Source: Lingula anatina (lineage: Eukaryota > Animalia > Brachiopoda). From it: a stretch of DNA of 64,000 nucleotides. Under the pieces are notes generated by a model that had not been told where the DNA came from, did no database searches, and was given only the letters and a program-made list of their open reading frames with translations. A program made the translations under genes and the position numbers. Shown here piece after piece: positions 20,573 to 63,451 of this stretch (within the stretch, counting starts at the first letter, position 1; each line of letters starts with the position of its first letter). The stretch is from positions 7,440,001 to 7,504,000 of the forward strand of contig CM120643.1 in the NCBI GenBank assembly GCA_051362555.1, given 5' to 3'.

Positions 20573-21824
20573 TATGGGCGTAACTAGGCATACGCACAGA
20601 CGCACTGTGCGTACAATTTTTTTTGGCCAAGCATGATAATATTTTATATAAATTTAGTGTATTTTTCACGGAATATAATCAAAAATCTTCTGCGAGTTAA
20701 AGTCACCTGTATTTACATATCCTCTGTATCAATTGCATACGCACCATTGTTCTGACACCCCGTCTTGCATACTTTTATTAAATAGAGGTAAACTATGCCT
20801 GTTGCCTATACAAGTCCTATCTTAATCGTCCATCTAACTGGAACTTCCCTTTACCTCTTAATTTGAGGGTAAGTGGCCTTCCACACTCCCATGGCTTTTG
20901 TCTTGAGAGTACAGAACGCACTCCGCTGGCGATATTTATCTCAGGTAAAAATCTACCTGTGCGTTATTTTAAAAGAGCATGCAGCTCTCGCAGACCTGGG
21001 GGCACAAGATAAAATCTGGACACCAGGTTAAATAAGGAGCTGGAGAAACAAAGGAATAATTTTTCCTGCAAAGCTTCAAAGAATTTTAACACGAACTTGA
21101 TCCAGCTTAGTCCTCCAAACTAACAGGGTGACATGGGCAATTTTTACAAACAAACAATTAAACTAAAATGTATCAGAGCTCTGTCGTGTCATATAATTGG
21201 TTGTTTTTGGGAGTCATGCACCCGCATGTCAGCTGGATGATACCGTATTCAATATTTAAGTTACATGCTTAGTAATTTGATCGTGGAGATGACCATGGAT
21301 ATCACGAAGTGGATCGCAAGAAAGCGTAATGATATTGCGACAATCAACTGTTGTTCAGATTTTTTAACGAAAACTCAGGATAACTGGCGCAAACGTGCAC
21401 GGGACGACGCTGGCGATACAGCAGAAACAGCAGAGACAGAGCCGTTGTCAAAGCAGCAAAAAACTGTTTCACATGAGCCTACTGCAGCTAGCCTCGACAT
21501 TGGAAAGATGAGTCAGCCACTGTCTAACAGCGACAGACTTGGAGTCCTTACTTCAAGGTTTAGACCGTCCAAAGAATGGAAAGCGCCTTTAAGAGAGTTA
21601 AGTGGCAACAACCGGTGAAGCTTTAGCTGGTCTTGTAAAATCTACCATCATGGACTTGGGCCTCGACCTTGAGAATCTCGTCGGGCAGGGCTACGACGGA
21701 GCTGGAAACATGAGTGGAAAGGTATCTTTTTACTGTTTTTTATATAACAAAAGAATAATCCAGAACAGTATTTTAAAATGTCTGTGAATTTAACTAGATG
21801 TGAGATGTTAATTAATTAATTAAT

Positions 21825-21867
<43 letters not shown>

Positions 21868-24095
21868 TTCATTTTTAACATTTATTTATTCATCTATTTA
21901 TTTTATTAACAAATCAATCATTTCGTTTTTCATTTATTCATTCCTTTTTTATTGATTTATTAAAGGTGAAGGGCGTTCAAGCAAGGATCCAGCAGGAGTA
22001 CCCCATGGCACAGTATGTCCATTGCAAGTCCCACAACCTTAACCTAGCAATCGGCCATAGTTGCAACATCCTTCCGATACGCAACTTATATACCACAGTT
22101 GGCGAGGTAATTTAAATAATATTTAAAACTTAAATACAATTTAAGTATAAAGGGTTGACAGCTCATGAACATATCTCCATCTGGATTTTAATCAATCCTT
22201 TATTTTGTTCATAAATTCAGGATATTTCTGCGTCAAACACACTTTTGCTAGTCACAGTTAAGATAACTTAAAAATTTCTTGTTTTTTTGTCGGTATTTCA
22301 GGATTTATTCTTCATCAACGCATCACCTAAGAGACTTGCAGTCTATCACTCCTCCTGTAAAAAATGTGTTTGAATTCCGTCTCTTATGTTATTTTTTATT
22401 AATATTTCAGGCTTTGTTCTTTATCACTGCATCACCAAAGAGACTTTCCGTCTACCGATCCTATGGCGACGACACCTCCACGCGTCTTCAAAACTTCTGT
22501 CCAACGAGATGGAGCCAGAGAGAGGAAAGCTTGGGCACTCTCATTGGAAGGTTCGGGCAGGTTCAGGACACGCTGATGGAACTGGAAAAAGATAAAGACA
22601 TCAAAACATCAACTACGGCGGCAGGGCTTTTCCGGGCTATGGACAGCTTCGAATTCGTCGCCCCTCTTTTTATCGCGCATCGGCTACTCCGGTACACTGT
22701 CCCTCTGTGCAAGCTGCTCCAGCTGACAGACTGTGATCTGGTTCAGGCATCTTCCCAAGCGACAAGACTGCGCGATCTCTATCAGGAGAAAAGGGACAAC
22801 GGCTTCTTCGACGAGGTGTGGGGGGAAATGGTGGAGTTTGCTCCCCAACATGACATAGAGGTGTCTGTCCCCAGGAGAGCAGCGAGGCAAATCCACCGAA
22901 ACAATGCACCGGCGGCATCTCCCAAAGACTACTGGCGTGTCAATGCATTCCTCCCTTTTGCTGACCATGTGATTTCGGAGATTTCGACCCGTCTCTGCAC
23001 TTCCTTCCCACGACTGTTGGCACAGAGTTTGATCCCACAGCGTCTGTCCAACCTGACCGACGAAGAATGGACGCAAATAAAGTCGGAATATGGCCTGGTC
23101 CTCGATTACAATGCGGACATTGAGTTGGAGCTCTGGCGACAAGCCGTGAACACGGGGGACATCACTGGGGTGGACTTAGAGGATGCGGTGAAAGCAAGTT
23201 ATGGTTTGTTCCCCAACATTCATAGGATCCTCAAGATTCTTCTTACTATGCCAGTGTCGACAGCAACAGCAGAAAGATCATTTAGCGCTATGAGACGTCT
23301 AAAGACATATCTAAGATCTACCATGTCCGACAAACGATTGTCGTCATTGGGACTATTACGTGTTCACAGAGAGTTCAAGATAGACATAGACCAGGTTCTT
23401 AAGGACTTTGACTGCTCAGGCCACAGAAGAATTCACATGGCTTTTGAGTAAAGACTGTCGCTTTTATACTCACTCATGTGTTGCATCAAAAAACGGTGTC
23501 ATTCTTACAATGAATAGATAATTAAAATAGTTGTTAAATGAATTATGAGAAAACGCATGTGCAATCAAACTGTTTTATATTTTTCAGTGATAACTTTTTA
23601 ATTAACAAGACAGTCAGCAGGTGCAATCCTTTTGTTTTAACATTTTAAGAGAGTGATTAAATATATAAAACACAGCTTTCTAATGAATTATCACTGTTTC
23701 TCCATCACGACGAAAAATGCATTCTCCAATATATGATCAGTGTTTCACACCAAACAACAGTGCCACAACATAATTCAGAATTGAGTTTGATACAAGCAGA
23801 CAATGCAGCCTAAACTGCAGTTCGTTCAGTGCCCAAAGTTGATGTTTCAGTTAGCCTCCTTTTAAATAGATATACCGTTCTGGGTGAATTAAAACATTGA
23901 AACTTAATTAAATCGCGAGAATATTTTTGAGTTAAAGGATAATTTTATTATTAAAGGAAATTAAGCTGCGATGTGTGGTACATATGCCGTGATTACACTG
24001 TCCTTCATCTGTTGCGTCAGTCTACATTTTGCTTTACGTGCTGGGAATTTTAAAAATCTGTGCGTACAATTTTTAAAGGTCTGGTTACGCCCCTG
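20573..24095 (+). mobile_element. hAT DNA transposon (ZMYM1/THAP12-like transposase), internally deleted
   Basis: TIRs TATGGGCGTAACTAG and CTGGTTACGCCCCTG. Subterminal CTGTGCGTACAATTTTT occurs at both ends. Encodes transposase exons. Confidence 0.85.
21265..23451 (+). pseudogene. Spliced hAT transposase: N-terminus 21265-21610, then exons to 21721, 21966-22106 and 22411-23451
   Basis: GQGYDGAGNMSGK|VKGVQARIQQEYPMAQYVHCKSHNLNL...VGE|ALFFITASPKR...CPTRW...PVSTATAERSFSAMRRLKTYLRSTM (hAT dimerisation domain). Phase-0 GT-AG introns at 21722-21965 and 22107-22410. The zinc finger and first catalytic Asp region are missing at about 21605. Confidence 0.9.
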
Positions 24096-24159
24096 TTATA
24101 CCGTAAGAATAAGGCGTTTGCTCACAAAACGGACAACAAACAATAAAAAACAAAAGTAT

Positions 24160-26708: not shown

Positions 26709-26949
26709 GATATTTTAAATTTTTTTTACTCAGTCAAAGTGGGGGGAGGGGGGGGGCATGCACCATGTTCAGAATGAACACCAGTGGATGTCTGGGGATG
26801 GCTACAGGAACATGGACCCTATCTCCTGATGTCAGGGAGGAAAAAAATGGTTGGAGCCTGGTACACAAATCTTGACTGCATTGAGACAAATCATCTCCAA
26901 CAAAAGATTTCAGGACATTATGTCAGGAACCTTGGTTACAGGCACTGCA

Positions 26950-27640
26950 AAACTTCTAGAACACAGTCGACATCAGAAGGATTGGGATGAGAAGATCTCC
27001 TTATTCCTCATGTCCTACCGCAGCTCACAACACGACAGCACTGGCTAAACCCCAAATCTAATGGTATTAGTTAGAAAAATTGATTTACCGGCCTATATTG
27101 TTTCTGGATGGCCATGTTACATGAGGTAGATAATTTTAATTTGGTGATGATTTTCCACTTTTCAGTATTTACAACTAATGGGTGTGAATGAAAATTTTAT
27201 ACCATGTGAGACTCATGAATGATTGAAAAACTTGAGTAAAAGCCTAAATAGATCCTATGAAATGGCTCGAGAAAAACTGAAAAGTGTGCAGAAATGTCAA
27301 AAAACAGTTGTATGATGCAAAGTTGAGAGAGAGTGAATATACTTGTGGTCAGAAGGTATATTTGAGGGATGAAAGTCATAAAAATTGAGAAAGTAAGAAA
27401 CTTAGACCCTTATATAGAGGACCATATGATGTTATCAAAGCATCCCCACCTCTCTATACAATTAAAGATAAAAAAGGAAAAATCCAGGTGGTACATCATG
27501 ATAGATTGAGAAAATGTATTGAAAGAGAGAGTGATTTTCATTTGAATGAACCACAATTGGTGGAACCAATTGTAAAAAGATCAAGATTTGGTAGACAAAT
27601 TAAGATGCCATCTCATTTAAGAGATTTCGCCTTAGAATGA
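26950..27640 (+). pseudogene. Gypsy pol integrase C-terminal fragment
   Basis: DWDEKISLFLMSYRSSQHDSTG*TPNLM; KLRPLYRGPYDVIK (GPY/F motif); VVHHDRLRKC; RSRFGRQIKMPSHLRDF. Contains stops and frameshifts. Confidence 0.88.
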
Positions 27641-27768
27641 TTATATTGATATATGTTTTGTTTATTAATTAAAATATAATTGTATATAGATACTTCCTTA
27701 ATTTTCGGCAGTGCTGAAATAAAAGGAACTTAATTTATTTATTTGTATTTTTTATTTTTTTTTAGACC

Positions 27769-28062
27769 ATGGATGAATCAAACATATACAATATTCTCGC
27801 AGAGAAAGAGTATAATTGGTGCAGAAATTGGATCGAACAACCAAACACTCTGCTCAACATATCAATTAACAATATAATACCACAAAATTTACCACAGTCC
27901 AGAATGTCAATGTACATGGGAACTCTACTTAATGAAAGAGTGCTATTAGAGAAAGGAATGGATTGGATGATTGAAAATATCTATTCATATCAAAACAATA
28001 TAACGAAAGAAGAATGTGTAGATATCATACTTTACTTGAGAGATAAATTGTATGGCTATTAA
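27769..28062 (+). CDS. Gypsy accessory ORF A, 97 aa, unknown function
   Basis: Open ORF with ACCATGG context, preceded by a polypyrimidine tract and AG (27764-27765). Stop runs into an A-tract, with AATAAA downstream. Confidence 0.55.
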   Translation: MDESNIYNILAEKEYNWCRNWIEQPNTLLNISINNIIPQNLPQSRMSMYMGTLLNERVLLEKGMDWMIENIYSYQNNITKEECVDIILYLRDKLYGY

Positions 28063-28653
28063 AAAAAAAAAAAAAAAAAAAAGTCCATAATAAAGATATA
28101 TTTAATAAAGTATATTATAGTTTGTACTTCCTATTATATTTCAGGTAATTTGATCAAAACAACAGTACAAGTTGGTATAGGTTTTTTAAATATTTGTTTG
28201 AATTTTGTTGTTGAGCATAATACATTGAGCACTGCATGAATAGGTTGATGGCTACTTTTGTCTTTTTTTGGATTATGGTTATTAAAAAAAAAAAAATTAA
28301 ATATTACCTAACACGGTTACACTGTTCAAACTAATATGTTGCAGTTTAGCATGTGTTTTGCATGTAATCGGATTAGAGGTTGTCAAGGTAATAATTCTTT
28401 TCTTTTTACACATTTTAATGATGGTATTTTATTTGGGGATTTGGTATAAAAGTAATATTTATACATAGTAAAGGCGGCGATGCTGTAATACTATGTTAGT
28501 AATTAATGAAATACTATGTTTATGATGTAATACTGTGTTAATAATGTAAAATTATGTTTATAATGTAATATGTTAATATTCATTTGAAAGAAAAGATCAT
28601 TATCATGTATGTTCATTCAAGAAAATAAACCATTGTATAAGTTTATTTCAGAT

Positions 28654-29322
28654 ATGGATGATCTAGACATGCTAGATGAAGCCTGTTTTGTCCCGGATTA
28701 TGATGACACTGATTTGGTGGAAGATCCTACTGTCCTAATTGGTGAAGAGGGGAAGGAAGTTATCCACTCAAATTGCAGAAGGAAGAAACAGAGGAAAGAA
28801 GTTCAGTGTGGTTTGTGTCTGGTGTCCAGTGCTGACCTGAGTAGACATCTTGGACGTCATGTGAAATCTGTTCATTTGCCATGGTATATGACTCCAGGAT
28901 TGGTGTGCTGGTATTGCAGATCGATGGAGAAGGACAATTCGCTTTTGCGTAAACGTCATGGTGATGTTCATTCGTATGGAACTGGTGAATTCGAGGAAAA
29001 ACTGTGGATCCAATTGGTGAATGGATTTATACATTTCCTGATATTAACATTAAATATGAGAAATATATGGGAACTGATGGACTATGTGAAAAGTGAAGGA
29101 CTAGTAATGTTGCCAGATAACTGTTCCAAGGAGGACATTGACTTTGTAAAAATATACATTTATGGAAATGGTATGGAGCCTAAGACTGAGATTCTGAATT
29201 CTTTGTTGACTTTGTTTCACTGGAGAACTTTGTATCATCTGTTACAAAAACTTTCATCAGAGGATCGTGAACTCAGTAGTCATTGGTATCGGCGGATGGA
29301 ATTTACTTTGCTATATGGATGA
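28654..29322 (+). CDS. Gypsy accessory ORF B, Cys/His zinc-finger-like protein (about 222 aa from ATG 28654), possibly truncated
   Basis: Acidic N-terminus, basic RRKKQRK, CGLC..RHVKSVHLPW..P..CWYC..RHGDVH. A TTTCAG acceptor ends 2 nt before the ATG. Confidence 0.7.
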   Translation: MDDLDMLDEACFVPDYDDTDLVEDPTVLIGEEGKEVIHSNCRRKKQRKEVQCGLCLVSSADLSRHLGRHVKSVHLPWYMTPGLVCWYCRSMEKDNSLLRKRHGDVHSYGTGEFEEKLWIQLVNGFIHFLILTLNMRNIWELMDYVKSEGLVMLPDNCSKEDIDFVKIYIYGNGMEPKTEILNSLLTLFHWRTLYHLLQKLSSEDRELSSHWYRRMEFTLLYG

Positions 29323-29696: not shown

Positions 29697-30037
29697 TGTG
29701 ACGATGTTGTGTTAGTTGAGATTGTTTTACATTGCTACCGGTAGATGTCTCTATAAGTAAAGTGTTACCCGGTGTGCAAGTTTGAATCTCTCCCGTGATT
29801 AGTAACCTAAAGGTAAAACTGTTCACTGTATAATTGGTTCTGATTGGTAAACGTGTACTATCTGAACTTGTATATAAGGTCCGACTTGAAATAAATTGGT
29901 CTCTTTCTTGGGCTTTTGGCTACCTATTTGGTCTGCGAGTTATTATTTGGCTCTTTTTTTGGCTCTTAACTCTGAGATACCAGTAAGTTCATTGTTATTT
30001 GTACCTTCATAAGGCACTCGGCCGCGAAGGCGTAACA
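29697..30037 (+). repeat. 3' LTR (341 bp)
   Basis: TGTGACG...CGTAACA directly after the PPT. TATATAAG about 29871, AATAAA about 29890, GTAAGT 29983. Confidence 0.85.
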
Positions 30038-30350
30038 AAAGCTAATGTAGTAGGAATAAATAATGAAATAAATGGCTTTGATTGGGAAAACTTTTTTCAA
30101 CACTTAGATAATGTGCATGAAATTGCTAGAAACTTTACAGACAAACTACTATCTATCTATAAGAAGTACATACCACAAAAAAAATAAGAAGTATTAAAGC
30201 GAATGACAAACTTTGGTTCTGTGACAGGTTACGGCATGAAATTCTAAGAAAAAAAATTATATGCTAAAATGAGAATTACTCCTAAGCAGGATAATACAAA
30301 TGGTTATAAGGCTCAGTCTGCTCTGGTAAATAAACTGATAAAGGACACAG
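30038..30350 (+). mobile_element. CR1/L2-type LINE ORF2 fragment (EN-RT tether), interrupted by the LTR element
   Basis: KANVVGINNEINGFDWENFF..DNVHEIARNFTDKLLSIYKKYIP../NDKLWF. Confidence 0.6.
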
Positions 30351-30418
30351 TATAATTGATGGCCTTGATGAAAAACTAGACAGATGTAGACTGTACTGGC
30401 GAACTATTAACTGTATCT

Positions 30419-33129: not shown

Positions 33130-33640
33130 AGTATGTTTTTTATTCTGTTGTACGTAGCAGAGCAAGAGCTTCCTCGAAATTATTTTGTGCTCAGATTGAT
33201 TGTTTGTTTTCACCTCGAAATGAAACTTACAATGTACATTACCTTGTTCATTTATGTGACAAAGTAATTGAATTGGGTCCCTTATGGACACAGTCTTGTT
33301 TTTTCTATGAAGACCTTAATGGGGAGTTGAAAAAGCTATTCCATGGGACAAGCTCTGTGGAATTACAGATTTCATCTGCTGTACAGTTGTTCTTCACCAA
33401 CAATTGCCAGATCTTGTGAAGCAATTAGTTCCAGGTTCAGAAACTGAGACATTCTATTTGAAATCAGCAAAGAAAACATTACCTCACAACAGTCACTGCT
33501 TTTTGGACACAGTTATGCAGTAGGGCATTTTGTCAGCTGTAATCTTTTGGATAGAACGAGAGAATTGATAAAATATTTGTGTCCCAATCAAAAGGGTACA
33601 ACAATTTTGCCGTCTTCTCATGAATGGCAATCTCTTTCAT
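33130..33640 (+). pseudogene. CMC (EnSpm/Mirage-like) transposase C-terminal fragment
   Basis: YNVHYLVHLCDKVIELGPLWTQSCFFYEDLNGELKKLFHGT. Confidence 0.75.
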
Positions 33641-34254
33641 ACAGGAACTGTGCAGACCGCAGAAAATTTCCGATACGTGTAATTATTTTTAATAAAGTCG
33701 CGGGCACGGGCACGTAAGTAGTAATGTAATTATTCCTATCACTTTAATTGGTCCCAGTCAACTTTAATTTTATTTCACTTTATTACCCTTTATCTAAAGT
33801 TGCGATAATTTGTGGCCACACGGTCTGTCACTCCAATATATGAGGTATAAAACCAGGTGGCAGCCTAGAAACAAATAGAGTCGGGAATTGGAACCTTGAA
33901 TCTTCAGCAGACAGATTAGAGACCTTAGAGTAAAATATACCCCGCAGTATCTGTAAGAACTAAGCACAGATTTGGTGACAGATATCGCACACGATTCTGC
34001 TAGACATATCAGCAGTAGACACAAAAACCCTCTTACTCAAACAAATGAACAAAACAGCAAACTGCTTCGGAAGATTACAAACAAGGATGGCTAAAATTTT
34101 TTAAAGTGTATATATAATACTCCCTCACCACGATCAAACAACAAACAAAAGTACTAAAACAAACAACGCCAACATGACAACTTGAGACCTTTTACAAAAA
34201 GAAACTCAGGGTGGACAAATGACGGCACAGTGATATGTTACCACTGTATCATAA

Positions 34255-34340
34255 GCTCACAGCTGTGGGAGATCGTAGGGTGATCCCCTCCTGTTGTGTG
34301 TGGAGGATCCGGGACAAATTCCCCTCCTCTACAGGACAGT
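34255..34340 (+). pseudogene. P2X7 C-terminal-like/KolX-like transposon accessory fragment
   Basis: [28 protein letters not shown]. Confidence 0.7.
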
Positions 34341-34954
34341 ACACAGGGTTTCTCCCAATGTTTTTCTTTTTTTTTTTTTTTTTTTTTGGTCAAAAATACC
34401 TGTCTCTAAACTCATTATTTTGCTACAACTGGCATTTATTGCTTAGTGGCTGTTGCTCATCTCACGCTCATCATAAGGATTTGCTGCAAACATTTTAAAG
34501 GCATTTGTGAAGAAACAGTATCAAGTCAAGAAAATCTTGATCAAGATTTCAAATGTGATATAGAAAATAAACTAAGGCAAAGTGAAAGACTGCACTTGAC
34601 CCTGGCATAAATGCTGAAGAAATCTTGAACAATACAAAATAAATAAATAAATAAATAAATAAAATAAAATAAAATAACAAGTGGTAAATTTGGTGGTAAG
34701 AGCAAGGTCACCAATGAAATGATCAAATCAGGAAAGGATTTTCTTATAGATGCCTGAAATGAATGGAAACGAATGAAGTCATGCAAGCATGCCTTGGCAT
34801 TGAATGACCAGTTCAATGACGTAATTTTGACAGATGAGTAATAAGTTAAATAATAAGGTCAAATGGAGAAAGAGTTTGTGGCATCTTTGTATAAAAAAAG
34901 TTGCAGTAGCTGATACATTAGATCATGATGTGATGTTATTGAAAAAATCAGTAA

Positions 34955-35966: not shown

Positions 35967-36170
35967 GTGGCATTTGGTAATCAAGTTAATAAAAAAATAT
36001 ATCACTGTTGTAAGTATTTAGCTGGGGTAGTTGAATGTTTTGACAGATTAATGTTAAGAGGGACAGTCTATCACACAAGTAACTACACAAGAGCAAAGGC
36101 CAAAAATTCATATACTATTAAATATGTAAGTAAAAACGGTGTAAGATTTGGTCATATAAAGTGGTTTTTT
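35967..36170 (+). pseudogene. CMC transposase distal C-terminal fragment
   Basis: FDRLMLRGTVYHTSNYTRAKAKNSYTIKY....FGHIKWF. Confidence 0.6.
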
Positions 36171-36174
36171 AAAA

Positions 36175-36350
36175 CTCGGGAATACTGGGTGAGACCGTGG
36201 ATTGCAAGACGCCACTTGTAAGGTGATTACAAACATTTGATGAAAGAACTTGGACTTGAAAATCAGGAAGTTTTCATTTCCTTCCTAAAAATAGAACCAG
36301 CAACGTTTTGTGAACTTCTGAAAAGACTACAGCCTCACCTAACGAAACCA
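36175..36350 (+). pseudogene. Harbinger transposase N-terminal fragment
   Basis: YWVRPWIARRHL*GDYKHLMKELGLENQEVFISFLKIEPATFCELLKRLQPHLTK. Confidence 0.75.
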
Positions 36351-37274
36351 GTGCTGTAATAAAAACATAAACTTGCATATGATATTCACTGAAATTCAGG
36401 GTACATCATTTGTTGCAGTGTCCAAACACTCATGAAACAGATTGGTTTTACAAGGAGAACAGTTTTTGAATGAAGTGTTGTTTTTATGGCCAGAAGTTGT
36501 GTTGAGTTTAATTACCCGGGGACCGTAGAAATACTGACTGGATTCCAGCAGCGTTTTAGTCTGATTCCGGTGTACTCTTGGGAAGTGGATGCCTCATAAC
36601 CCTGTAAGGAGTACATGACAAGGCAAGTGTGGCTGCCTTTAAATAATCCAAGACTAAATAATCAGCAGCACTAAAATTTGTAGCTGGCAAATGAACTAAC
36701 CTATATATTCAATGGTGGCTACAGAGGAACAAAGGGCAGGTCAGTGACCCTGATTTTGGCCTCTGAACTGCGCAAAAATCAGCAGATCTTGTTTGAAAAT
36801 CTGTTTGTGCCATGGCCATTCAGTCAGCAGGTTATGTTCGACAATCAAGTCATTTTGGAAAATCTCTTTATATTTCCTCATCAAGTATATATTTAATCAG
36901 CAGGTTTTGTTTGAAAATCAGCAGGTCATGTTCAAAAATTTATTTGTGTTGTCACCATCAAGTCTACAATAGATTGAAAACCTGTGTTGTCTGCTTATTT
37001 TCAATGTCAAATGTGGAAGAAAGATTCCAGCTTTTTTGGAACCTGTGAACAGATATAATCATCCTGCTCTTCCCAATAATTTTGCTGCACCCTATAATAC
37101 TAACCTTTCCCTTGACCAATTCCCATAATGATTGCCCCTTTCCTGCTGAAACACCTATTCCTGCCACATCTCTTCCCTCTGTGCATAATGCAATGCGCAC
37201 TGCATACAACAGCAAACATGAAAGAGGAATTATGCACTCAGTGCACAGCATTGGACATCAAATAATTCACAGGC

Positions 37275-38481: not shown

Positions 38482-38960
38482 GTGATTGGAATCTAAGAAA
38501 TTTTTGTTTGCAAAACCAATGAGGCAAAAATGAAGGCGTGACAGGAAATTACAAGAAGGTTAGTGCCCAATTTTTTAAATCAAAAGCACTAGAATAGATT
38601 TATTGACTATTGATATATTTTAATCTTATAATTCCATCCTTCACTTAATTACTTCTTTTATAAACATAAGGAACTACATCATTCTGCCTAGTATATTGAA
38701 TAGAATTGGAAAGATTTTTCCAGCTACACCAAAATGAAGGATGCGGAAAGAAGGAGGGAGATTAAAGACTGATGGTGGTAGGGTCTCTCAAATAATGTTG
38801 ACTCCAATCCAAGAAAAGGTTAGCATTTTATAAAAAAATTAAATGTATATAGTCAGAACATACCTTAAGTAGATGGCTTTGTGTTTGGGGGAGATACAAT
38901 ACAGTCGTGCCAGGAGAGGAAGAAGCCAGTAGTCATCTGACAGAGGAACTGGAAGGTACT
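38482..38960 (+). pseudogene. Harbinger Myb/SANT-like accessory gene remnant (spliced)
   Basis: TNEAKMKA*QEIT | NWKDFSSYTKMKDAERRREIK/KTDGGRVSQIMLTPIQEK|gt, with AG/GT boundaries. Confidence 0.65.
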
Positions 38961-43614: not shown

Positions 43615-43880
43615 GTCGAAGATTAGGGGCCACTGTGGGCACACGGCTGTTTTTTTACGAAAGCTTAAATGGTGACCTGAGAAAACAATTTCATGGAACC
43701 CAGAAGGTAGAATTGCAAATAGTCACAGTGGTGTGCATTCACCAAAAATTACCAGAGCTATTTGAAAAAGTAAAGGATGGTACAGTGCAGGCCCTGGTGC
43801 AGCAGATGACTAAATGGCCAAGTTTGAAATTTTCAGACAGGATAGGTAATTCCTCTCATATCCTGTTCCAACCACTCAAG
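43615..43880 (+). pseudogene. CMC transposase C-terminal fragment, paralogous to 33130-33640
   Basis: LG/PLWAHGCFFYESLNGDLRKQFHGTQKVELQIV. Confidence 0.75.
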
Positions 43881-43935
43881 AATTGTTACAGTTAAAAGTG
43901 AAATCTAAGGGGCCAAGTAATTTTTGCGTTCTGTT

Positions 43936-44150
43936 AATGGGCAGGATATATTCTAAAGAAGAACGCCTTGACCCAACAAGGAACATGGGGGGCTCAAGGA
44001 CAACGCAATATAACAAAAGACCAATCTGCTCACAAAGATTAGACTATATATCAAAAACAGCATCCAGAAATTGTATCCATCTGTAATGAACGAGGAGCTA
44101 TGGAGACCATGTCTCTCGGCGATGAACACTGCCAATTGAAATTTGAGGTG
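43936..44150 (+). pseudogene. BEN-domain-like transposon accessory fragment
   Basis: MGRIYSKEE...KRPICSQRLDYI/YPSVMNEELWRPCLSAMNTAN. Confidence 0.5.
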
Positions 44151-44727
44151 TTCACAAAAGATCAACATATAGGAAAGCTAACACGTGTTTCCCTACAATA
44201 CGCCAAAGGCTTAGTTTGTCTGCAGATAAATGTGATAACATTCTTGGCTGACTGAGGCAACGTTTGAAAAAGCAACCAATTAACTTACAGACCATGGCGC
44301 ACCGTGGTAGAAAATGAAGAAGAAAAGCAGACAACTATTAAACATATGCACAGTGACAGTGAGTAAAATTTACAGATATTACTATTCTTTTACAACCTTT
44401 GGATTTATATTGCTGTGAATGGAGTGTTAGTGATACGCATATTACAATGTACTACCAGATGATATTACAATGTACTACCAGATGCTACCAGGCTGTGTAT
44501 TTTCATACAACACTTCCCAATAAGAAAGCACAAAGCAAGTAAGTAAATGATAAAGTAGACCCCATTTAAAGTAACATCAAGTAAACTATTGTCCTCACTC
44601 TCTGAAATACAAGTGGTGTTTAATTCTGATTACTAAGTCCCATATTATAATATTGCCCTATTGGAATGGTCTGTATGATAATCATGTTTTTGGTTGGTTT
44701 TAATGCCATTTTATTTAGAATTGTCAG

Positions 44728-46097
44728 GTGGGGAGCACCAAAAAGGCTCCCGTCAGACCAAGGAAGAGAGTTTGTAGCTGAAATAAATACAGAGGTTTGC
44801 CGCTCACTCAGCATAGAGAGGTCTGTGACAAGTGCTGATCATCCTCATACCAATGGTCTGGATGAGAGGACAAACCAGACACTGAAGACTCGATTGAGCA
44901 AGCTCATTAATGAACACCAGAACGACTGGGATACTTATTTGGAGGATGTGGCGTATTCCATCAGGACACAAAAGCAAGCGTCCACAAAGTTCACCCCTTT
45001 TTTTTCTAATGTTTGGGAGGCACCCTAGGTCTCTGAGAGAGGTAATTCTAGATTTAAAATTTTAATGATTTAGACAAGATAAAATTTGGAACATTTTTAT
45101 TATTATTTTCTGACATCTCAGTAATAGGTTTGTTACATCACCGAAATTCTGTTTGAAAAGCAGTCTATGTGTAGCCAAACTGTGTATTAGATATGATATG
45201 CATTGGTCTTGGCATTTATATCAAACCTATTTAAATCATGCAGACCTTTTTTAGATTATCAGTTATTTCTATATATGCTTAAATGGCTGCACTACAAATA
45301 TTTTATTTACCTACCTATTTTTCATTCTTCTGCTTATTTTACTTAACAGGCTGTCTGCTAGTTGTGATACTGATCCTGTCCTCACCTTAAATAAAGTGGG
45401 AAGCATGAAACATTGCTCTCATGTTCACAAATAAAACAGAACAAATTTTTAAGAGGTTTTCTAATTTCAATTGTGATTTCCATTTTTAGATGAATGCCAC
45501 AGATGGTGAAAGTATTGAAGTTCTGGAAGACATGGTCAACCATAGAGAGGCATTGCTAGATGTCACCAATAAAGTTGTAAGTACAAAGGCACACACAATG
45601 TGCTTCATTAAAGGGTTCTAGCATGTTACAGTTGTATCAAAATTGTATTTGAATATAAAATACTTTCCTTGTTTTATGACTGCCTGTCATATTTGTGTCT
45701 CTAATAAGCAACTGTGCATTCATTACTAGGACATAGTATTTTAATGCACCGACACAGTGTACGTAGCCATCACCTGCCTCTGTCATGGTGCACTTTTTTC
45801 ATTGTTACTGCACTAACCTAAATACTGATATACCTTTTTGCCTCAAAGTTATTAGTTAATTTGATGCCTGTTTATGTGCCATCTTCACTGTCTATATTTT
45901 TCTTATGTATTTTTCTTAGGTACAAGAGAATGTGGAAAAGGCCCAAACAAAACAGAAGGAGAATTTTGCAAAGAGAAAGGCAAATGGCGTCAAATCCTTT
46001 GACCTTTCAGTTGCAGACATGCAGTCATGAAAAGGGCTATGAAAAACATTGGAAGGAAGGGAGGAAAAATGGAGCATCTGTGGACTGGGCCTTATCG
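44728..46097 (+). pseudogene. Ginger1/GIN-like intron-containing integrase remnant; exons 44728-45041, 45490-45576, 45920-46097
   Basis: WGAPKRLPSDQGREF...HPHTNGLDERTNQTLK...TKFTPFF/LMFGRHPR | MNATDGESIEV... | VQENVEKAQTKQK.../RKGGKMEHLWTGPY. GT-AG introns, two frameshifts, no RT/RNaseH or LTR nearby. Confidence 0.82.
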
Positions 46098-46591
46098 GTA
46101 TGTATTTCTGCCAGAACTTTTCTTTTAATGAGTTATTTGCTGCTCTTGATACTGTACACGTGATTTGTGATTTCTAGTACTTCCACCATAATACATGTAC
46201 ATCTTAACACAACAAAACAATAATTCAATATCTCAGAAGTAGAGGGGAAGATGTATCTTGTCCAGAGCACAGTGGAGTCTGCACAGCCCATCTGAGAAGA
46301 CGACACCATTGGGGACAAGCTTAACCACTGATGGGGATCGACAGCCGAGCCCAGCTGCATGTGACAATGTTGAAATTTTTTTGGGACACATGACACTTTA
46401 CCAAAGCTCTGAAAAAACAAATAGAAAAAGCACCATTTTCTGGTCAAGTGTCTCCAGGAAAAACAAAATACACTAGAGACAAAATGCAAAAACGTTTGCA
46501 ATGCGCTGCTATTCTGAATTTGATGCTTGCTTTAGAGCAAATAAATAAATAAATAAATAAAATAAATAAAATAAATAAAGCAAATAAAGGG

Positions 46592-47260: not shown

Positions 47261-48027
47261 ATGGAGACCAAAGAAGTCATTGTAAAAAATGAGGCAACAC
47301 CACTTAATCAAATGACGGTAACAGATGACACAGGCTCAATAACAGTCAATTTGTGGAGAACAGCCACTACATCCCCAGTTAAACTGGGAAGTCGTTTGCC
47401 AGAGGAGGGCAACCAACCTCCACTTCAATACATATGAAAACCAACTGGTATGCCACGTCAATTCACCAGAAAATGTACAGGTAACCACACATTGAACATC
47501 TTTCCTCTTTAACTGTTTTTAAAATAATGCTAATAATTTGCTATACTGTTTTTCAAGAAATAATCAACATTATACAAGCATTACAGATTATTCTAATAAT
47601 CGTCAATTACATTGTTCACTTTTAACACAAAAGTCCACACACAGGTCACCAACATATACATATCATGCTTCATAGAAAAACATTATTACTGAGACCACTA
47701 AAAACCATTATTAACTTAGTACATATAATAGCTTTCTCTGTTATATTTAAGAAAATTTTTTTTCTTATTTCATTATAATTCCAGATTCAAGAAAGTGTCT
47801 GCATAGAGAAAGCCATCAAGTTATTGGGGATCAGTCATGACCAGACAACTCAAGGCTTCCTTTTCTTTACTGAAGAAGAACAAGAATTACATATGTCTTT
47901 GGAAGAAGCAAGAAAAATATGGCCACACTCTTCAGAGGATGAAATCAGCACAACCCTACCAATGAATATTACATGTGCAATAACTGAAGGACAAATGACA
48001 GATGTAGCAATACAGGGTAATTGCTGA
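47261..48027 (+). pseudogene. Spliced OB-fold (ssDNA-binding-like) gene remnant; exons 47261-47480 and 47785-48027
   Basis: METKEVIVKNEATPLNQMTVTDDTGSITVNLWR (D-x-T-G-x-I-x-V-x-L-W motif), one frameshift, ...HVNSPENVQ|gt...ag|IQESVCIEK...GNC*. Confidence 0.6.
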
Positions 48028-55238: not shown

Positions 55239-56499
55239 ATATAGCTTATGTGTGTTGAAATCAGTCCTTATCTTTACAGCAGCAGGCAACGAGACCATAA
55301 AACCAAATATTTGTGTTCAAGAAACAATGGAAATTACAGATAAAGTAACACCTGTTCAAATCATGGGCATTATGGAGTAACGACCAGTCATTAAAAACAT
55401 TAACGCCGTCAGCAGATCCCGTCATTGCTATATTACACCATACACAATTCATACTTTGGGACTTTAGAACCTTTGGACCATGAAACCTCAAGCAAGTGAT
55501 CCTATTGACTAGCAAACCTTTGGAACAACGGTACATTTGCATTATCAAACTATCAGACCAATGAACCTTCTGACTACTGAACCTTTTGAACCATTGGATC
55601 TTGGCATCATCAAACTATCAGCATGGGCGGCCAAAAGGGCAAAAATTCAAGTCATCAATTCAGTTATGTTTTGTCGATTCACTGCCTTCCCATCAATTCA
55701 GTTTGAAGTTGAAACGAGCCTATCATAAATTCAACATCTACTTTCGTCAATTCAATTGTCAAACATTTCTCATCTACGGTGTATTAAAACCAATGCTCTC
55801 ACTATTTTCGTCGATCGTCTAACTATTCGCGTTGATCGTCTAACTATTCTCGTCGATCCTGTAACGTCATTTCATCATTCATCAATCTATCGCCAGAGGG
55901 TGCTGCAGTAGTAACATGTGTTTCCATAGCCATTGTCAGAGGTGAAAATTTTCACATACATTTCCATAATTATCGGACACTTCACTGCCCTTTGGCACAT
56001 TGTATGGCAACCTCACTAGGCCTACTTGGATTTTAACATCTCAGATTACTTGAGTTTCACCTTTTTATTCAACTAGAATATATATATAATGTCCCGTAAC
56101 CTAACAGAGTCAATAGATAGAACCTTTCTCCAATCTATTGGAGGAGGACTCAACCAAGCGGTGACACTTATTAATGGTGTTAGTGACAGGTCCATATCCA
56201 CAACTTCTACTTCTCATGACCAGGAAAACGGGGGAGAGGAGATATGCTGGTTGAAAATCTTTCTCCTTGTGTTTTGCAAGAAACTTTCAAAAATTGAGAT
56301 AGGCCTAATCAATGAAAAACCCTCTGATCTGGCTCTGCTGCTACACTGTCTTCAGACTGATTTTAATTTAAAATGAATTAGCTACACCTAAAAAATGTAA
56401 TGAATAAAATAAATGAATGAGTAATATAAGACATTTAACAAAAAGAATAAACCTGAACAATCAGTCTTTTCATATGTTTTGTTGAAAAATTAGGCCAGG

Positions 56500-56700
56500 T
56501 CATTTTGAAAGAGGGGGAGATTATGAAGGTGAGGACAATGACAGACGAGGGTGAAGAGGACAATGACAGACAAGAGGGTGAAGAGGACAATGACAGACAC
56601 GAGGGTGAAGAGGACAATGCCAGTATGTGGCATGCTGCCTATAGATAGAGCATACATATCCCTTTCAGCAAGAGGCAGACAGAAAGCAGTTATCAAAAGC
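56500..56700 (+). pseudogene. Second degenerate P2X7-C/KolX-like fragment with a 27-bp acidic repeat
   Basis: (EGEEDNDRx)n followed by NASMWHAAYR*, resembling the R-H-A-A-Y-R motif of this family. Confidence 0.4.
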
Positions 56701-57699
56701 TTTTTTTTTAATCTTTTTTTTTCTTCTAAATCTGTATGGTTTTTGGATTAATCTTTTTTCTAAATCTGTATGTTTTGTATAAAAAGTTTTGGAGTATCAT
56801 GGAGAAGACATGTTGAATGTGGTAACCAATTAGATGGAATATTTTTCAGAACATACTCATACTTTAATTAAATTCTTTTTTTTTTCAGAAAGCAAAAAAA
56901 AGAATGCAGATCTTGTCAGCTCAAGGGTGGCAGACTGTCCATTTCACAGAATAGAAACCCCAAACACCAGAATAAAATAGAAATGAAGAAAGATATAAAC
57001 ACTGTTTATTTTTTGTTTGGTAAAATTCAGGCAATTGAGTTTCCAGTTCGGGCAAGTATGGTAGAGCCCTACCAAAGCATAACAACATATATCCCACTAA
57101 AAAAAGACATTAGCTCCGTTTCCCAAAACCTATCAGGGTAACCACCCTCTTTAAATCTTCTTCTGAAGTCAATAATCAAAAGCAAAAATGCTGACATCAG
57201 ATGTGCTGCTATATATATATTGGGCAGGCGATAATGAGCTCAGCATTCCCACGTGCTTCCCCGACTAAAGTAACCTGCATACCGAAGGATTTCAAAATCA
57301 AATAAAATATCCCGTGACCATTTTACTCAGGCAATGAGACCATAAAACCAAATATTTGTGCTCAAGAAAGAATGAAAATTACAGACTAAATAACATCTGT
57401 CCAAAGCTGGGGCATTATGGAGTCATGAACATACTCATCAGAGTTATGAGGTTATACTACTCTAACAGTAAAAATTGTAAAAACTTAACCTCAGGTTTTG
57501 TAAACAACTTTTATCACCAAAGTATGCAGGAAGAGGAGAGACTGGAAGAATTCTTGCTCACATAAAGATTAAAATACAATTAATAAAATTTTAGCTTAAA
57601 ATATAACACTTGGATGATAACAACCTACTTTTACAAGCATACCTATAGATGAATTACAATATTACAAATTACTCTCAACAAAAAGCTTGTCAAATCTGA

Positions 57700-58258
57700 A
57701 AGATGGTAACTTCTCATGGAGTAAAGGTATCATGAAACTCCTATTCGAAACCGATTTGGAGATAAATAAAATTCCTTAGCACATTCAAAAAACATCATCA
57801 GTGGCTTCGTACAAAACTTCCACAGTTAACTTGAGGACAAATCTAAATCCAGCACCTATTGCCAATTCAAAAATACATTTAAAAAAGGAAAAATATCTGG
57901 ACGTTGTTCAAGATGATGAAAAAAGAAAAAGCCTTAGTTGTTCACACCAGTGGGCATAAACTCCACATTGTAACAGGCAGATACACTAACACCACTCCTG
58001 ATGCACAAACACATCTACATTGCTGCTTTAATTTGATATACTCAGGAAATACTGTAGCATCATATCCAAACTGCTAACAATAACAAAACAATATCATTAA
58101 ATAATCCAATCATGGAACTAAGATTAAAAAATCCAAAATGCAGTTTATCAGTTATAGTGTAAACAACAGATATGTCACAAAGTGCTGACTATGACAATGA
58201 CACTGGACAGACACAGTGATCAGAATATAGACAGACTGAAAGTGTCTGTATATAATAA
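57700..58258 (-). mobile_element. Old decayed HINE-like element
   Basis: Ends with decayed GAC/GACA repeats and hairpin ATATAGACAGAC...GTCTGTATAT plus A-run. Left boundary uncertain. Confidence 0.35.
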
Positions 58259-59289
58259 AAAGGTGATAAAACTTGCAATTGCAACTTAATGACCTCACAA
58301 TAACAGAGATCATCTATAACACATGATATCTGCATTGAAATATATATTCACATTAAAACATTTTCACATAAGTCTTGTTCTCTTCAGTGATGGCTTATTG
58401 TTTACCACAATCTTGCTGTATATGCTACCTCTACTAGTACTGTAACAGTTTCCATGCATATGGGGAAAATTATTATAACACATCACAACTGAGCTGGAAT
58501 ATCAATTCACTTTTAGACATTTCCATGGTGTCTAATCGGGTATTGTCCAACACAATCTCCTTGCTTTATATACCCTGCGTCTATAGTTTCTATGCATATG
58601 GGGGGGGGGGGGGGGGGGGAATTGATTCTTTGTGTTACCTGGAACCCACAATTGTTATACAATTGCACTGTTCCATATAACTGGCTCCACAGGATCTGCC
58701 GTGTTTGGAAGCCTTGTTCTGGGTGGTTCTGGCAGCACTCTCTAAAATGAAATGGGCGTAACTGTTTAGAATGTAACTGTTTTCATGTGTATCCTCTCTG
58801 TAATATCCTTAACAATTCTTTGTGCATCATAGTGCAAACTATTATCAGGAACAATTCAATGATACGTAATTCAAATATAGGATGCTTTTGTAAAATGCTC
58901 AACATTTTTGTATCACCATACTTGATATTTATATCTTGATACTGCTCGTATGTAATGGTGATCATATTAAAATATAAGTATTCATTTTATGTATTTTGTG
59001 CATACAAGATGAATTGGATTCAAATTCTTTAAAAATGACAGGTGTGATTAAAAAAGCACTTGATGTATATAAAAATTAAATTTACATTACAATTAAAGCA
59101 GTGAAACATTAATTTTATTCATAATAATCCATGCTTTCCATTTGAAATAATCATTTCACCCCCCACCCCCCCCCCCCAAAAAAAAAAAAATGTTACAATT
59201 GTGTCTCTTTCACAAGGGACAGAGGGGAAACAAATTACCTATCTTTATTTGCATTAAAAAAAAAACAACCATATATTTTGTCTGCTATC

Positions 59290-60530
59290 TGTCACCTGTT
59301 TACAATAGCTGTCCTGTCTCTGGTTCTTCATTCATCCTAAAACTTGCCACATCCCGTGTCTTGCACAACTGGGTGAGATGAAGATGTTCCTGTTGCTGCC
59401 TTTTTATGTCTGCTTCTTATAAAATACATGTCCCCCATGTTCAGCCAGGTAAAGTCAGTTCACCTGGAAGACACCATGCTGTATGGAGACTGGAGCTGGA
59501 AAAAGAGACATGACAGTGAAGGAACACTAATTATCTTAACACACAAAAGAAAAGACAAAAACCTGACAGTCCACCAGAGCCAGTTGGGAAAAATATTATA
59601 ACTATGGTGCACTGCCAAGTGCCCACCTTATATGGTAGACATCATTGTTGTGGTGATTGAACTGTGATAAGTTAAAAATTACTTTGTCTTTTGGAGGCTA
59701 CTGGACACAATTGTGACTGCTGAGACCAGCACATTCTCAGATTGAACACAGTTAAATAAACAGATCTCTGCCAAATCTGTTGGAATTTTTGTGACATTTG
59801 AATACAAAATGCCTAACAATTGCAAAAATCTGGGATAATTATATCAATTGACAGTGACTAATTGAAAGACATTTTCTGACATTTGAGATGAGTCACCAAG
59901 GAAATTCTAACATGTTCTTCAGCCACTTTATATGAAGAGTTAAGTGCACATGAACAATATTTAATGGAAGTATTCATCTTTTAGATATTTTGTGCATTTA
60001 TAATTAATGGTTTAAATAAAAAAAATGCATTGGTAACAAATGAGAGACGTGGATAAAAAATGCCCTTAAACAACTTCAATACGCATTACAATTATAAGTT
60101 TTTTTTTAATAAAGAAGTGTGGTAATTATTAAACCCGTGCTTTTTAAGTCATATTAAAAAATATTCAAATACAAAACTTGGGATAACTGGCCTTGTGTTT
60201 CTACAGAGGTAAGAAAGAAGACCAATTATACCCACTGTTACTTCAAAGACAAAACCAGCTGTTCATTTTGTGTACAACCTGCAAAAAGTCCAGTTCCCTG
60301 TTTACCATGGCTGTCCTGTCTCTGGTTCTTCATAACCCATTCATCCTGAAACTTGCTGTGTCTTGCGCAGTTGCATGAGATGAAGGGATATTCCTGCAGC
60401 TGTTATTTCCTGTCTATTTCATATTAATAATACATCCCCGGACCCCCCCCCCATGTCCAGCCAGGTAAAGTCAGTTCACCTAGAAGTCACCATGCTCTAT
60501 GGAGACTGGAGCTGGAAAAAGAGACAAAAG
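59290..60530. repeat. Diverged duplication of about 220 bp (59290-59510 and 60300-60527) containing a minus-strand micro-exon-like core
   Basis: Shared GCTGTCCTGTCTCTGGTTCTTCAT and CAGCCAGGTAAAGTCAGTTCACCT...ATGGAGACTGGAGCTGGAAAAAGAGACA. Confidence 0.8.
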
Positions 60531-60788: not shown

Positions 60789-60979
60789 TAACTGTTGATC
60801 AATGTATTTCTGAGGGGATTCTTGCTAAATTGCAATCAACTTGAGCAGCTTAGATGTCTGTCACACCTACTGAAGCTGCTAAAGAGTAATTAATTATCAG
60901 TAGGCACGCCAGACATCTAAGCTGCTAAGCTAAAGCAATTCAGCAAGAAATCCCTCAGAAATAAGTTGATTAACATTTA

Positions 60980-61236
60980 GGCTTCGTTCACATGCAATGT
61001 CTATTTTCTAAATTCTATTTTCTATTTGCGGTATGTCTTATGATCACGGTCTGTGGCCTGAATATCCCGCGGCGTAATTACTGGCAGCGCGAGCCAGTTA
61101 CTATAAGTTACTATAAGTAACTGGCTCGCACTGCCAGTAATTACGCGGCGGGATATTCAGGGCACAGACCGTGATCATAAGATAGCGCAAATAGAAAATA
61201 GAAATTAGAAAATAGACATTGCATGTGAACGAAGCC
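60980..61236. mobile_element. Near-perfect 257-bp palindromic Harbinger MITE (nested)
   Basis: GGCTTCGTTCACATGCAATGTCTATTTTC...GAAAATAGACATTGCATGTGAACGAAGCC with TTA TSD. Confidence 0.92.
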
Positions 61237-61267
61237 TTAGTCTGGGAATGGTCCCTTAAATGGTCAC

Positions 61268-61443
61268 TGTTGATGATTGTGTTAGTTGAGACCGTGACCT
61301 CTGACATTGTGTTCCGTTCCCATGATGCATTAGTAGTAATGGTTAGGTGTTGAATAAAGTTCAGTGTTCATTGAACATGTGAATATTGCGTTGTTCCACA
61401 TACACACAGTCTGGTCCATACAAAACTGGGACCGAGATCAACA
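61268..61443 (+). mobile_element. Solo LTR, 176 bp (5-bp TSD; Copia/BEL-like)
   Basis: TGTTGAT...ATCAACA perfect terminal IR, exact TSD GTCAC on both sides, internal AATAAA at about 61353. Confidence 0.85.
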
Positions 61444-63451
61444 GTCACATACCTCGATCCCCACACGACTGTATGGTCGAATGGAGTCAAGATTTGATTG
61501 ATGTGCCCATGCCTGAATGACGCCAGTGGAGGCGTGTGAGAGGTGGAGTGACCATTACAGGATTAAGCAGTCTTCCTTTCATGTAGGTCTGCCATATTAA
61601 GGCCGTGGACCAGTTAGCACTCGGATCTTCTCATTGCTTCTTGATTATATATATAACTCTGCTAGTACTTCTTTATGTTTTACCTCAGATGTTTCAAGGA
61701 TCGAACTCGGAGCTACTGAATAACACTTATAACACTGGGATCACCGGATCCCTACGTCTATTCTCTACCTCTTGTATCTGCAGGTCCTTCTCTCTCTCTC
61801 TCTCTCAAAAACCCCGCCCAACTGCATGTCGCTTTCAATCCTAAGGCTAAGACTTCCGGTACCAGATCACTGCAACAAAGTACTCACCCTTTTGTCATCA
61901 AGAATGTGTTTGCATACATTTAAAGGGATGCTGGAATCGTGGAATGTCCTACTGCTTTAGATAAAACTTTAATGGTAACTCATAGATATATCTTGTCCTT
62001 GGAATAACGTTATTTCATTAACGTGTAAAATTTTCCCGCTCCGCCTAAGCCCGACTAAGTAGGTCAAAGAAAACCCGCAGTGAATACTGGGTCACATCTC
62101 GGTACATCCTGTCACTGGATCTCAGCACTACTAACACAACGCTCAATTTGAGCAAATAGAGCATTTAAGGACCTTCGCATTTAGAGTGATTACCATTAAA
62201 AGTAAAACAAACGTAGCCTACTTGAAAATATTCTAAAGTCAATTTTTTCCCAAATATCCTGCAAATCTACTAGTAAGCCTACTTGTAGGCCTACTTTACT
62301 TTTATAGACTGCGCTATCTAGAGACTATGCTTAGGCTATATTAGATGCGCGTTATTTTTTCTAAAAAGTTCCAAATTTTTTCCCCAATTTCAAGTATATT
62401 TTCTCAATGCCTGGTAACGAAGGTGTTGCAATTGGCTTCCTAACAGAGTGCAGCTTTGTCGTGTTACGTGTAAAATATTTGATTGTGCCCTGTCAACATA
62501 TCGTTCATCTAATCATGAGGGCCCGCTGGGAAGGGGGGGGGGGAGTGATCACATTTCACGGCCGCGGAAAATATCATCAAATCACAAATTACAAATTACA
62601 TAAATTGAATTAGAATTTTATTCATATCTCATTGAAAATGCGAGTCCGGCGAGCTGAAAATAACTATCATCGAGTATAATGACTTCGTTCCACTATAAGG
62701 ACGAGGGATAGAAACCCGCAATTCACGATTCACAGGAATGGGGTGCTTCACATCTCGGGGAATGATAAGTGGCTGTTACGGGTAAGGAAAATACCCAACG
62801 GGGCCTTCAGTCCTTGTCTTAACTAAAATGAGGATTTAATCAATGTCTATAATATTTCAAAACATTATTTAAAGCAACTAAAATTAATGATCTGGAGAAA
62901 AAATACGTCACGAAGGATTTTCAGCTTTTAAAAGTAGCTGCAAGTTATTTGTTGCGTTATTTAAGATAAACATTCTAGACATTTTCTGAGACGTTAAATA
63001 TTAAACTTGCTTCCAAACAAGTAGGCCTACCTTATTTTTCTAATTTATTGAAAATAAACTTATAGGCAAATGTGAGATGGAGTTGCGAGTGACAGTAGAG
63101 AAGGTCTAAAAATGAGTCTGCATTTCGTGTTTTGAATATGATTAGCACAGTGCTGAGCTAACTTATGCAACAATTTTCGTGTGCATTTAAAGACTCATGA
63201 TCACTAAAGGAAGAGCGAGAGACAAAATGTAGTTATTATTCATCTATACAACGTACCTCCGACCGTGTTGGGAGTTCGACCCCCTTGAGGACTCAGATGA
63301 TAGCTGTCGTCAATACTGCTTTTAAATAGCGTAACAAACGCGATCGTTCTTTGTTCTCATATCATAAACAGGAATATTTCTTTAAAAAATTATTAAAGAC
63401 ATCCTAACATTTTATACATATCTGTGAATATCTAGTGAAAACTCCATCTGT

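Follow-up and report, generated by a model that had tools for sequence, protein, structure and literature searches.

The window analysed here, a stretch of 64,000 nucleotides of Lingula anatina DNA, carries transposon remnants that read on the plus strand between 21.2 and 46.1 kb, and a spliced non-coding RNA on the minus strand, which starts at about 62 kb and points leftward, towards them. The coding pieces considered are as follows.

1.5-3.3 kb, minus strand: Tx1 remnant, confirmed by Pfam, outside the predicted span
21241..23451, plus strand: hAT transposase remnant (Pfam: Dimer_Tnp_hAT, E 6.5e-12; DUF4371, E 3.4e-4), split by introns or insertions
26899..27637, plus strand: broken Gypsy integrase remnant (tblastn E 9e-9 and 1e-5; Integrase_p58_C, E 3.5e-4)
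27766..29322, plus strand: two ORFs (98 and 244 aa) behind the Gypsy integrase and probably part of the same element
30002..30352, plus strand: possible LINE linker piece, found by eye, which we take to be of CR1/L2 type
33156..33684, plus strand: CMC/EnSpm transposase remnant a (88% over 76 aa to P0001)
34268..34351, plus strand: P2RX7 C-terminal-domain remnant (Pfam P2RX7_C, E 4.3e-10), presumably linked to Kolobok/KolX
36030..36170, plus strand: weak further copy of a CMC transposase C-terminal piece (tblastn E 6e-5, 26%)
36171..36356, plus strand: transposase N-terminal piece, presumably Harbinger-like (Atlas 0.91-0.95), in frame with the CMC piece that it adjoins
38497..38799, plus strand: possible Myb/SANT piece, found by eye
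43483..44252, plus strand: CMC transposase remnant b (tblastn E 4e-14, 44% to P0001), followed by a possible BEN piece
44657..46117, plus strand: putative Ginger-like integrase remnant made up of two blocks, both on this strand, with about 0.8 kb between them
47261..48024, plus strand: weak OB-fold-like two-exon remnant (Pfam OB-fold model, E 0.11)
56592..56714, plus strand: claimed second P2RX7-C-like piece, unconfirmed
63.8-64.0 kb, minus strand: second likely minus-strand remnant (GIY-YIG lead at 0.87), upstream of the RNA start

Six or seven of these remnants are supported by search tools (hAT, Gypsy, two or three CMC, P2RX7-C and the Ginger-like integrase), all on the plus strand, while Pfam and tblastn found no transposon remnant on the minus strand between 21 and 62 kb. 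The Pfam search covered 591 stop-to-stop ORFs of at least 42 aa (297 plus, 294 minus), excluding ORFs with at least 60% of their length inside tandem arrays, and gave matches at E<=0.01 in 13 of them. Eight of the 371 ORFs at 21.2-62 kb were matched: six transposon-type ORFs on the plus strand (DUF4371, hAT dimerisation, Integrase_p58_C, DUF4218, P2RX7_C and rve), representing five elements; an RDD1 match on the plus strand that is a poly-A artefact; and a non-transposon DUF2649 match on the minus strand, under the cut-off. Only hAT and P2RX7_C passed the curated Pfam cut-offs. Between 4 and 21 kb there was no transposon-type Pfam match on either strand.

A tblastn search with 151 proteins returned 280 HSPs at seven places, all on the plus strand; the place at 28.8 kb scores no higher than the sole match on the reversed decoy, and because the library was seeded from plus-strand fragments its view, on either strand, is limited to relatives of Gypsy, Ginger and CMC. 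A composition screen, unspecific at score 8 (28 decoy segments vs 33 real ones), gave no independent minus-strand segment at 21-62 kb, the only two being shadows of the hAT ORF. In a self-tblastx comparison summed scores swamp the result, and only the CMC and 50.3-51.2-kb pairs were used.

The original prediction had listed ten plus-strand families over about 36 kb. The shared strand holds, with fewer elements over about 25 kb: hAT, Gypsy, CMC, P2RX7-C at 34.3 kb and the Ginger-like integrase are supported, the Harbinger and OB-fold pieces are leads, and the CR1, Myb/SANT, BEN and 56.6-kb P2RX7-C pieces are unconfirmed, with no transposon-type match. A Pfam search at E<=1 on ten candidate pieces and six opposite-strand decoys yielded, besides the weak OB-fold lead, three weak matches to unrelated families; at this threshold neither the Harbinger-like piece nor the 56.6-kb piece was matched, and the Myb/SANT and BEN pieces likewise have no Pfam match. 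Among 141 candidates no match to the CR1-like piece was found, a weak negative, as is the lack of a homolog among 140 candidates for the 244-aa ORF behind the Gypsy integrase, which has a protein-like composition. The named Atlas matches of the Harbinger-like piece are DUF8040 clusters (0.91-0.92), a lead only, and the Myb/SANT piece may belong to the same element. Both OB-fold-like pieces are protein-like, with plus-strand splice sites in the sequence. Since the remnants retain gaps and splice sites of their own on the plus strand, they arrived as inserted DNA and not as copied mRNA.

The label of the Ginger-like integrase is our inference. A phmmer search with it gave 22530 proteins at E<=0.001, of which the close ones are at 61-75%, and four of ten scanned relatives (P0014, P0018, P0051 and P0061) have integrase domains without a reverse transcriptase. 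Named relatives of this piece include fish and crab proteins.

Tx1 had been taken as the sole minus-strand transposon; it does lie on that strand, and the remnant at 63.8-64.0 kb had been missed. Both fall outside the predicted span. Within it the confirmed remnants are not densely packed, occupying 5.1 of 26.9 kb, and there is no confirmed coding remnant at 48-62 kb. Depletion of AATAAA on the minus strand was not seen at 21-62 kb (69 copies vs 78 on the plus strand).

For elements placed independently, the probability of a one-way run is 0.031 for seven of nine, 0.016 for eight of ten and 0.004 for ten of twelve, figures for a single window, one of many scanned, with edges chosen afterwards. 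The value of about 0.002 first proposed was too strong, because only six or seven elements are tool-supported and because of this choice of edges; it becomes about 0.03 for seven elements and 0.004 for ten.

Independence would fail if the fragments had travelled inside one or two large units, either composite mobile elements or duplicated segments, which we consider very improbable. Some neighbours may share one element (CMC b with BEN, the Harbinger-like piece with Myb, CMC a with P2RX7-C), and related non-coding repeats, inverted and 15.5 kb apart, flank the 36-48-kb group; this non-coding family occurs in both orientations (34956-35067 vs 50354-50465). Against this, a TIR/TSD search found no convincing TIR pair with a target-site duplication enclosing several fragments, the in-window duplications (1-779 with 35112-35892, and 30419-32860 with 52758-55241) are without coding pieces, and among the 151 relatives there was none in which the CMC and integrase groups were seen together. 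The CMC places are matched by P0001 alone, a Transposase_21 protein named Lingula anatina LOC106181232. The 36.0-kb piece, which was not recovered under stricter tblastn settings, covers query residues already matched at 33.6 kb, and the CMC pieces are therefore separate copies.

To examine transcription, four (X1, X4, X5 and X7) of nine listed same-species RNA-Seq runs were aligned to 55250-63400, an 8.2-kb region that holds no confirmed remnant. An abundant spliced RNA is present in one of the four, being strong in X1, at about 1% of that level in X7 and absent from X4 and X5. Its parts are as follows.

61888..62050, minus strand: exon 1, its start placed only to about 62.0-62.1 kb
60279..60511, minus strand: exon 2, 233 nt, left out of some reads
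59296..59495, minus strand: exon 3, about 200 nt, depth 302, a tandem duplicate of exon 2
57000..58741, minus strand: exon 4, a long 3' exon whose main end is likely near the AATAAA at 57010
55250..57000, minus strand: low read depth past the likely end, candidate read-through

These data bear out the predicted leftward spliced transcript, which begins close to 62 kb on the strand opposite the remnants. In 14 bins chosen as non-repeat, 99% of X1 depth is in one direction, and the splice joints are CT..AC, as for minus-strand introns. X1 depth is 33 in the bin at 61778-62049 and 0.85 in the adjoining bin, placing the start near 62.05 kb. Exon 1, whose donor context is AGG|GTGAGT, is joined through CT..AC to 60511 (21 reads) and to 59495 (23 reads); the joints 60511/61888 and 59495/60279 are carried by 129+2 reads in X1 and 2+2 in X7. 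Exons 2 and 3 are identical in 169 of 193 aligned columns; the exon 3 donor at 59296 is taken from the sequence, the reads carrying a diverged 3' end. In the reads, splicing uses three of the signals first proposed: the donor after 61888 and two acceptors, before 60511 and before 59495. The 32-nt micro-exons drawn there were wrong, these exons having 233 and about 200 nt, and a donor at 61450 is absent among the joints listed, beside which 36 further joints exist. For the exon proposed at about 58639-58742, much of the RNA continues beyond 58639.

The RNA, from a PolyA library, has no long ORF: in three exon models, outside which the reads carry additional exon-like letters, the longest ATG ORF is 93 aa (shuffled median 65, 95th percentile 100). 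A protein-coding host gene on the minus strand was rejected on this result for the exons in the window, and Rfam gave no match within the 64 kb. The source of the reads is a diverged allele or paralog: in X1 only 108 of 3366 reads are at least 99% alike to the locus, fixed differences are numerous, and the window lacks two exon-like loose ends (closest match at 6-7 mismatches in 22). For these reasons the RNA may derive from a paralog.

Depth along exon 4 runs 194, 107, 46, 56, 21, 34 and then 4, an approximately tenfold fall near 57.1 kb beside the AATAAA at 57010. Past this point minus-strand depth is 2-5 at 56.07-57.15 kb and 9-46 at 55.25-56.07 kb, of which 55.5-56.07 kb is multi-copy, with further runs also mapping there. 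The fall, and the 11 kb between the likely RNA end and the nearest confirmed remnant, would suit an ordinary 2.3-kb tissue-restricted lncRNA that ends at about 57 kb and lies by chance beside a transposon graveyard, whose one-way appearance would come from chance, nesting and incomplete detection; the run probability of 0.016-0.03 for seven or eight elements, and the failure to confirm half of the claimed pieces, point the same way. We think this explanation unlikely, if by no great distance. It requires a lucky match of RNA strand and position, the RNA data being independent of the transposon calls and giving the strand and start as predicted; it also has to accommodate the placing of both minus-strand remnants outside the predicted span, and the residual minus-strand depth beyond 57 kb, which we count in favour of a cluster.

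A further explanation is a long transcribed unit (a lncRNA intron or run-on zone) from which sense insertions were purged for their disruptive splice or poly(A) signals, with no piRNAs. An antisense bias of LINE and LTR elements is established in mammalian introns and ascribed to purifying selection (PMC3088655). In keeping with such a unit, the minus strand shows a small excess of T (skew 0.027 at 21-62 kb vs 0.006 at 4-21 kb), and a run of seven under a 2:1 bias has a probability of 0.06. However, neither Pfam nor the ORF test revealed a host exon or protein-coding ORF on the minus strand, exon 4 continues unspliced in the reads, and the mammalian analysis, as given in PMC3088655, left out DNA transposons, which form most of the remnants here. 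We regard this account as improbable.

The reading we favour, to which we give about an even chance, is a uni-strand piRNA-type cluster supplied by read-through from the 62-kb minus-strand lncRNA. Some transcripts would run past the likely poly(A) site at about 57.0 kb for a further 10-35 kb, giving a long antisense precursor spanning the remnants, which PIWI proteins would cut into transposon-silencing piRNAs. Insertions opposed to the RNA would be retained as a source of useful guides; those co-oriented with it would yield none, or would end the precursor prematurely. The arrangement, with remnants pointing one way beside an antisense spliced RNA, is that of a likely piRNA source. More tentatively, and on the doubtful side, a dedicated lncRNA promoter and a tandemly repeated, structurally variable exon unit may feed an antisense archive directed mainly against DNA transposons of the cut-and-paste type, and the host group (possibly brachiopods) would be one without described piRNA clusters. 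Among the literature matches listed there was no piRNA-cluster study in Lingula, and no title pointed to one in echinoderms or amphioxus. Such an archive would supply the mapped start and splicing pattern of a transposon-silencing cluster from outside flies and mammals. Should piRNAs be confirmed, read-through could be studied here with a defined start, splice sites and a probable poly(A) site to work from, and strand counting on raw sequence will have been able to lead to a transcript of this kind; otherwise the locus is a lncRNA next to a transposon heap.

Uni-strand piRNA clusters are already known from slugs and flies. Those of Arion vulgaris (PMC11615739) and Deroceras laeve (PMC12506671) share with this locus the single transcribed strand, the opposed fragments and an invertebrate host; they are defined by small-RNA data, whereas the Lingula locus is known from sequence and RNA-Seq, and the Arion vulgaris cluster is described as densely packed (PMC11615739), whereas confirmed remnants fill about one fifth of the span here. 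Drosophila flamenco and flam-like clusters, in the account of PMC10643416, likewise have a discrete promoter, a spliced, likely polyadenylated RNA and fragments lying against transcription. The term 'flamenco-like' fits the layout but not the content: the flam-like strand bias is confined to Gypsy and flam-syntenic clusters span 227-1085 kb (PMC10643416), whereas this locus, at most about 40 kb long, has one Gypsy among its six or seven remnants, the rest being DNA-transposon types, and is closer to mollusc clusters as described in the literature. As in the mammalian piC-DoG described in PMC11615739, a short processed transcript precedes a fragment array that would be reached by read-through beyond its end; the differences here are a non-coding upstream unit, an array that starts some 11 kb past the likely end, and read-through that is only a candidate. 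In element content, the basis of this comparison, clusters of Lymnaea stagnalis and Crassostrea gigas show the same enrichment in DNA transposons plus Gypsy, with Kolobok and hAT enriched in the snail (PMC6128900). Promoters and gene models of transposon-silencing clusters are largely unknown according to PMC11615739, whereas the Lingula locus presents a spliced 5' gene model.

We scanned 591 open reading frames (ORFs) of at least 42 aa on both strands (297 plus, 294 minus; those mostly inside tandem arrays were left out) against Pfam, and obtained matches at E<=0.01 in 8 of the 371 ORFs at 21.2-62 kb. Six were of transposable element (TE) type, every one on the plus strand:

plus strand, hAT (two matches), Gypsy integrase C-terminus, DUF4218, P2RX7_C and rve

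The other two were a poly-A artefact and a non-TE family on the minus strand. As predicted, a Pfam match placed Tx1 on the minus strand outside this array. With P0001, a Transposase_21 protein named from Lingula anatina, as query, tblastn located plus-strand CMC pieces at 33.2-33.7 and 43.5-43.8 kb and a weak one at 36.0 kb; they are separate copies, since they overlap on the same query residues, and P0001 agrees with a CMC piece at 88% over 76 aa. A tblastn search with 151 proteins, a library that detects Gypsy, Ginger and CMC kin only, returned seven plus-strand places, one of them at decoy level, and did not recover the 36.0-kb CMC piece; kin of the Ginger-like remnant were named from a fish and a crab. 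That the fragments are parts of composite elements is very improbable, as no convincing TIR pair with a TSD encloses several of them and the duplications within the window lack any coding piece.

The Harbinger-like piece is an Atlas lead and the OB-fold piece a weak Pfam lead; the CR1, Myb/SANT, BEN and 56.6-kb pieces of the original prediction found no confirmation in Pfam or homolog searches. The predicted strand bias is real, holding for 6-7 supported elements over 25 kb (5.1 kb of sequence covered), but smaller than claimed, as the element count did not stand. With edges chosen afterwards, the chance of a one-way run is 0.031 for seven elements and 0.004 for ten, both single-window figures, and the strand case from sequence alone is suggestive only. 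CMC-like and Harbinger-like coding pieces are fused in a single reading frame with zero spacer at 36130-36215 (plus). Behind the Gypsy integrase, an open 244-aa ORF with Cys/His motifs (28588-29322, plus) gave no homolog in our search.

Four of nine RNA-Seq runs from the same species were mapped onto 55250-63400. In the PolyA run X1, introns read CT..AC on the plus strand, equivalent to GT..AG on the minus strand, with these joints:

59495/60279, minus strand, intron joint in 131 X1 reads
59495/61888, minus strand, intron joint in 23 X1 reads
60511/61888, minus strand, intron joint in 21 X1 reads

X1 depth is 99% in one direction (14 bins picked as non-repeat), begins in bin 61778-62049 and peaks at 302 on exon 3; thereafter it runs 194, 107, 46, 56, 21 and 34, reaching 4 near 57.1 kb, where a minus-strand AATAAA lies at 57010. 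The antisense spliced lncRNA is therefore real at its predicted place near 62 kb, with three of the proposed splice sites; the supposed micro-exons proved longer, one of 233 nt and the other of about 200 nt. The RNA's main form probably terminates around 57 kb; depth stays at 2-5 as far as 56.07 kb, then is 9-46 in a partly multi-copy stretch. Exons 1 and 3 have zero depth in runs X4 and X5, and run X7 reaches about 1% of X1 depth, with the main joint in four reads. The longest ATG ORF in the exon models, 93 aa, is inside the shuffled range.

Exons 2 and 3, of 233 and about 200 nt, duplicate each other (169 of 193 columns identical), and exon plus flanks are tandemly duplicated at 59295-59583 and 60297-60595. 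Among mapped X1 reads, just 108 of 3366 are at least 99% alike. Many of the differences prove fixed, the duplicate exons are mixed at several joints, and two exon-like loose ends have no counterpart in the window. The source of the RNA is thus either a diverged allele that carries other copies of the exons or a paralog, and the reads suggest additional diverged copies of the exon unit in the sequenced animal. Intron 1 holds three small inverted-repeat elements (60600-61260) that draw both-strand reads from all four runs. Near the RNA start, GGCGGAGCGGGAAAA at 62030-62050 (minus) resembles a GC-box/E2F site. Upstream, a GIY-YIG-like tail, also a lead, runs off the window end at 63806-64000 (minus); its Atlas matches at 0.94-0.95 are unnamed and the nearest named is GIY-YIG (0.87); it is likely a GIY-YIG/Penelope-type C-terminal piece, Penelope being our presumed label.

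Our leading reading, at about even odds, makes the lncRNA the 5' portion of a putative uni-strand piRNA-type precursor. A share of transcripts would pass the poly(A) site, the read-through would cross the remnants in antisense, and this precursor would be cut into guides. The remnants entered as DNA, because they retain plus-strand gaps and splice sites. Against a precursor count the undepleted minus-strand AATAAA, one non-coding repeat family present in both orientations, and the modest remnant density. From the likely 57-kb end to the nearest confirmed remnant is 11 kb, and an lncRNA beside a heap that is one-way by chance is a less likely alternative. Purging of sense insertions from a piRNA-free transcribed unit is less probable still; the intronic antisense bias of mammals (PMC3088655) supports it.

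The window is AT-rich (GC 0.30-0.42), with few genes and abundant tandem and dispersed repeats, in our reading the look of marine invertebrate DNA. A 63-bp tandem array (52208-52710) has 8 copies at 92% matches. One non-coding element, which has an ACGGCG tract and tandem units of 161 bp, occurs at 1-1208 and 35039-35966 (97% over 779 bp), with an inverted relative at 50319-50465. Another, of 2.4 kb with 146-bp tandem units, has co-oriented copies at 30419-32860 and 52758-55241 (85-91%). Near-identical palindromic MITE-like elements (20001-20565 and 24178-24877; 97% over 392 bp) flank the hAT remnant on both sides.

Flam-like clusters, as PMC10643416 describes them, have promoter and splicing in common with this locus but are far larger and Gypsy-specific, and we therefore reject flam-like membership. 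Kolobok and hAT are enriched in snail clusters (PMC6128900). Most slug clusters are uni-strand, and the displayed example has its fragments on the opposite strand (PMC11615739, PMC12506671); the present locus, a candidate piRNA cluster on sequence and RNA-Seq evidence, has its remnants opposite to the RNA as well.
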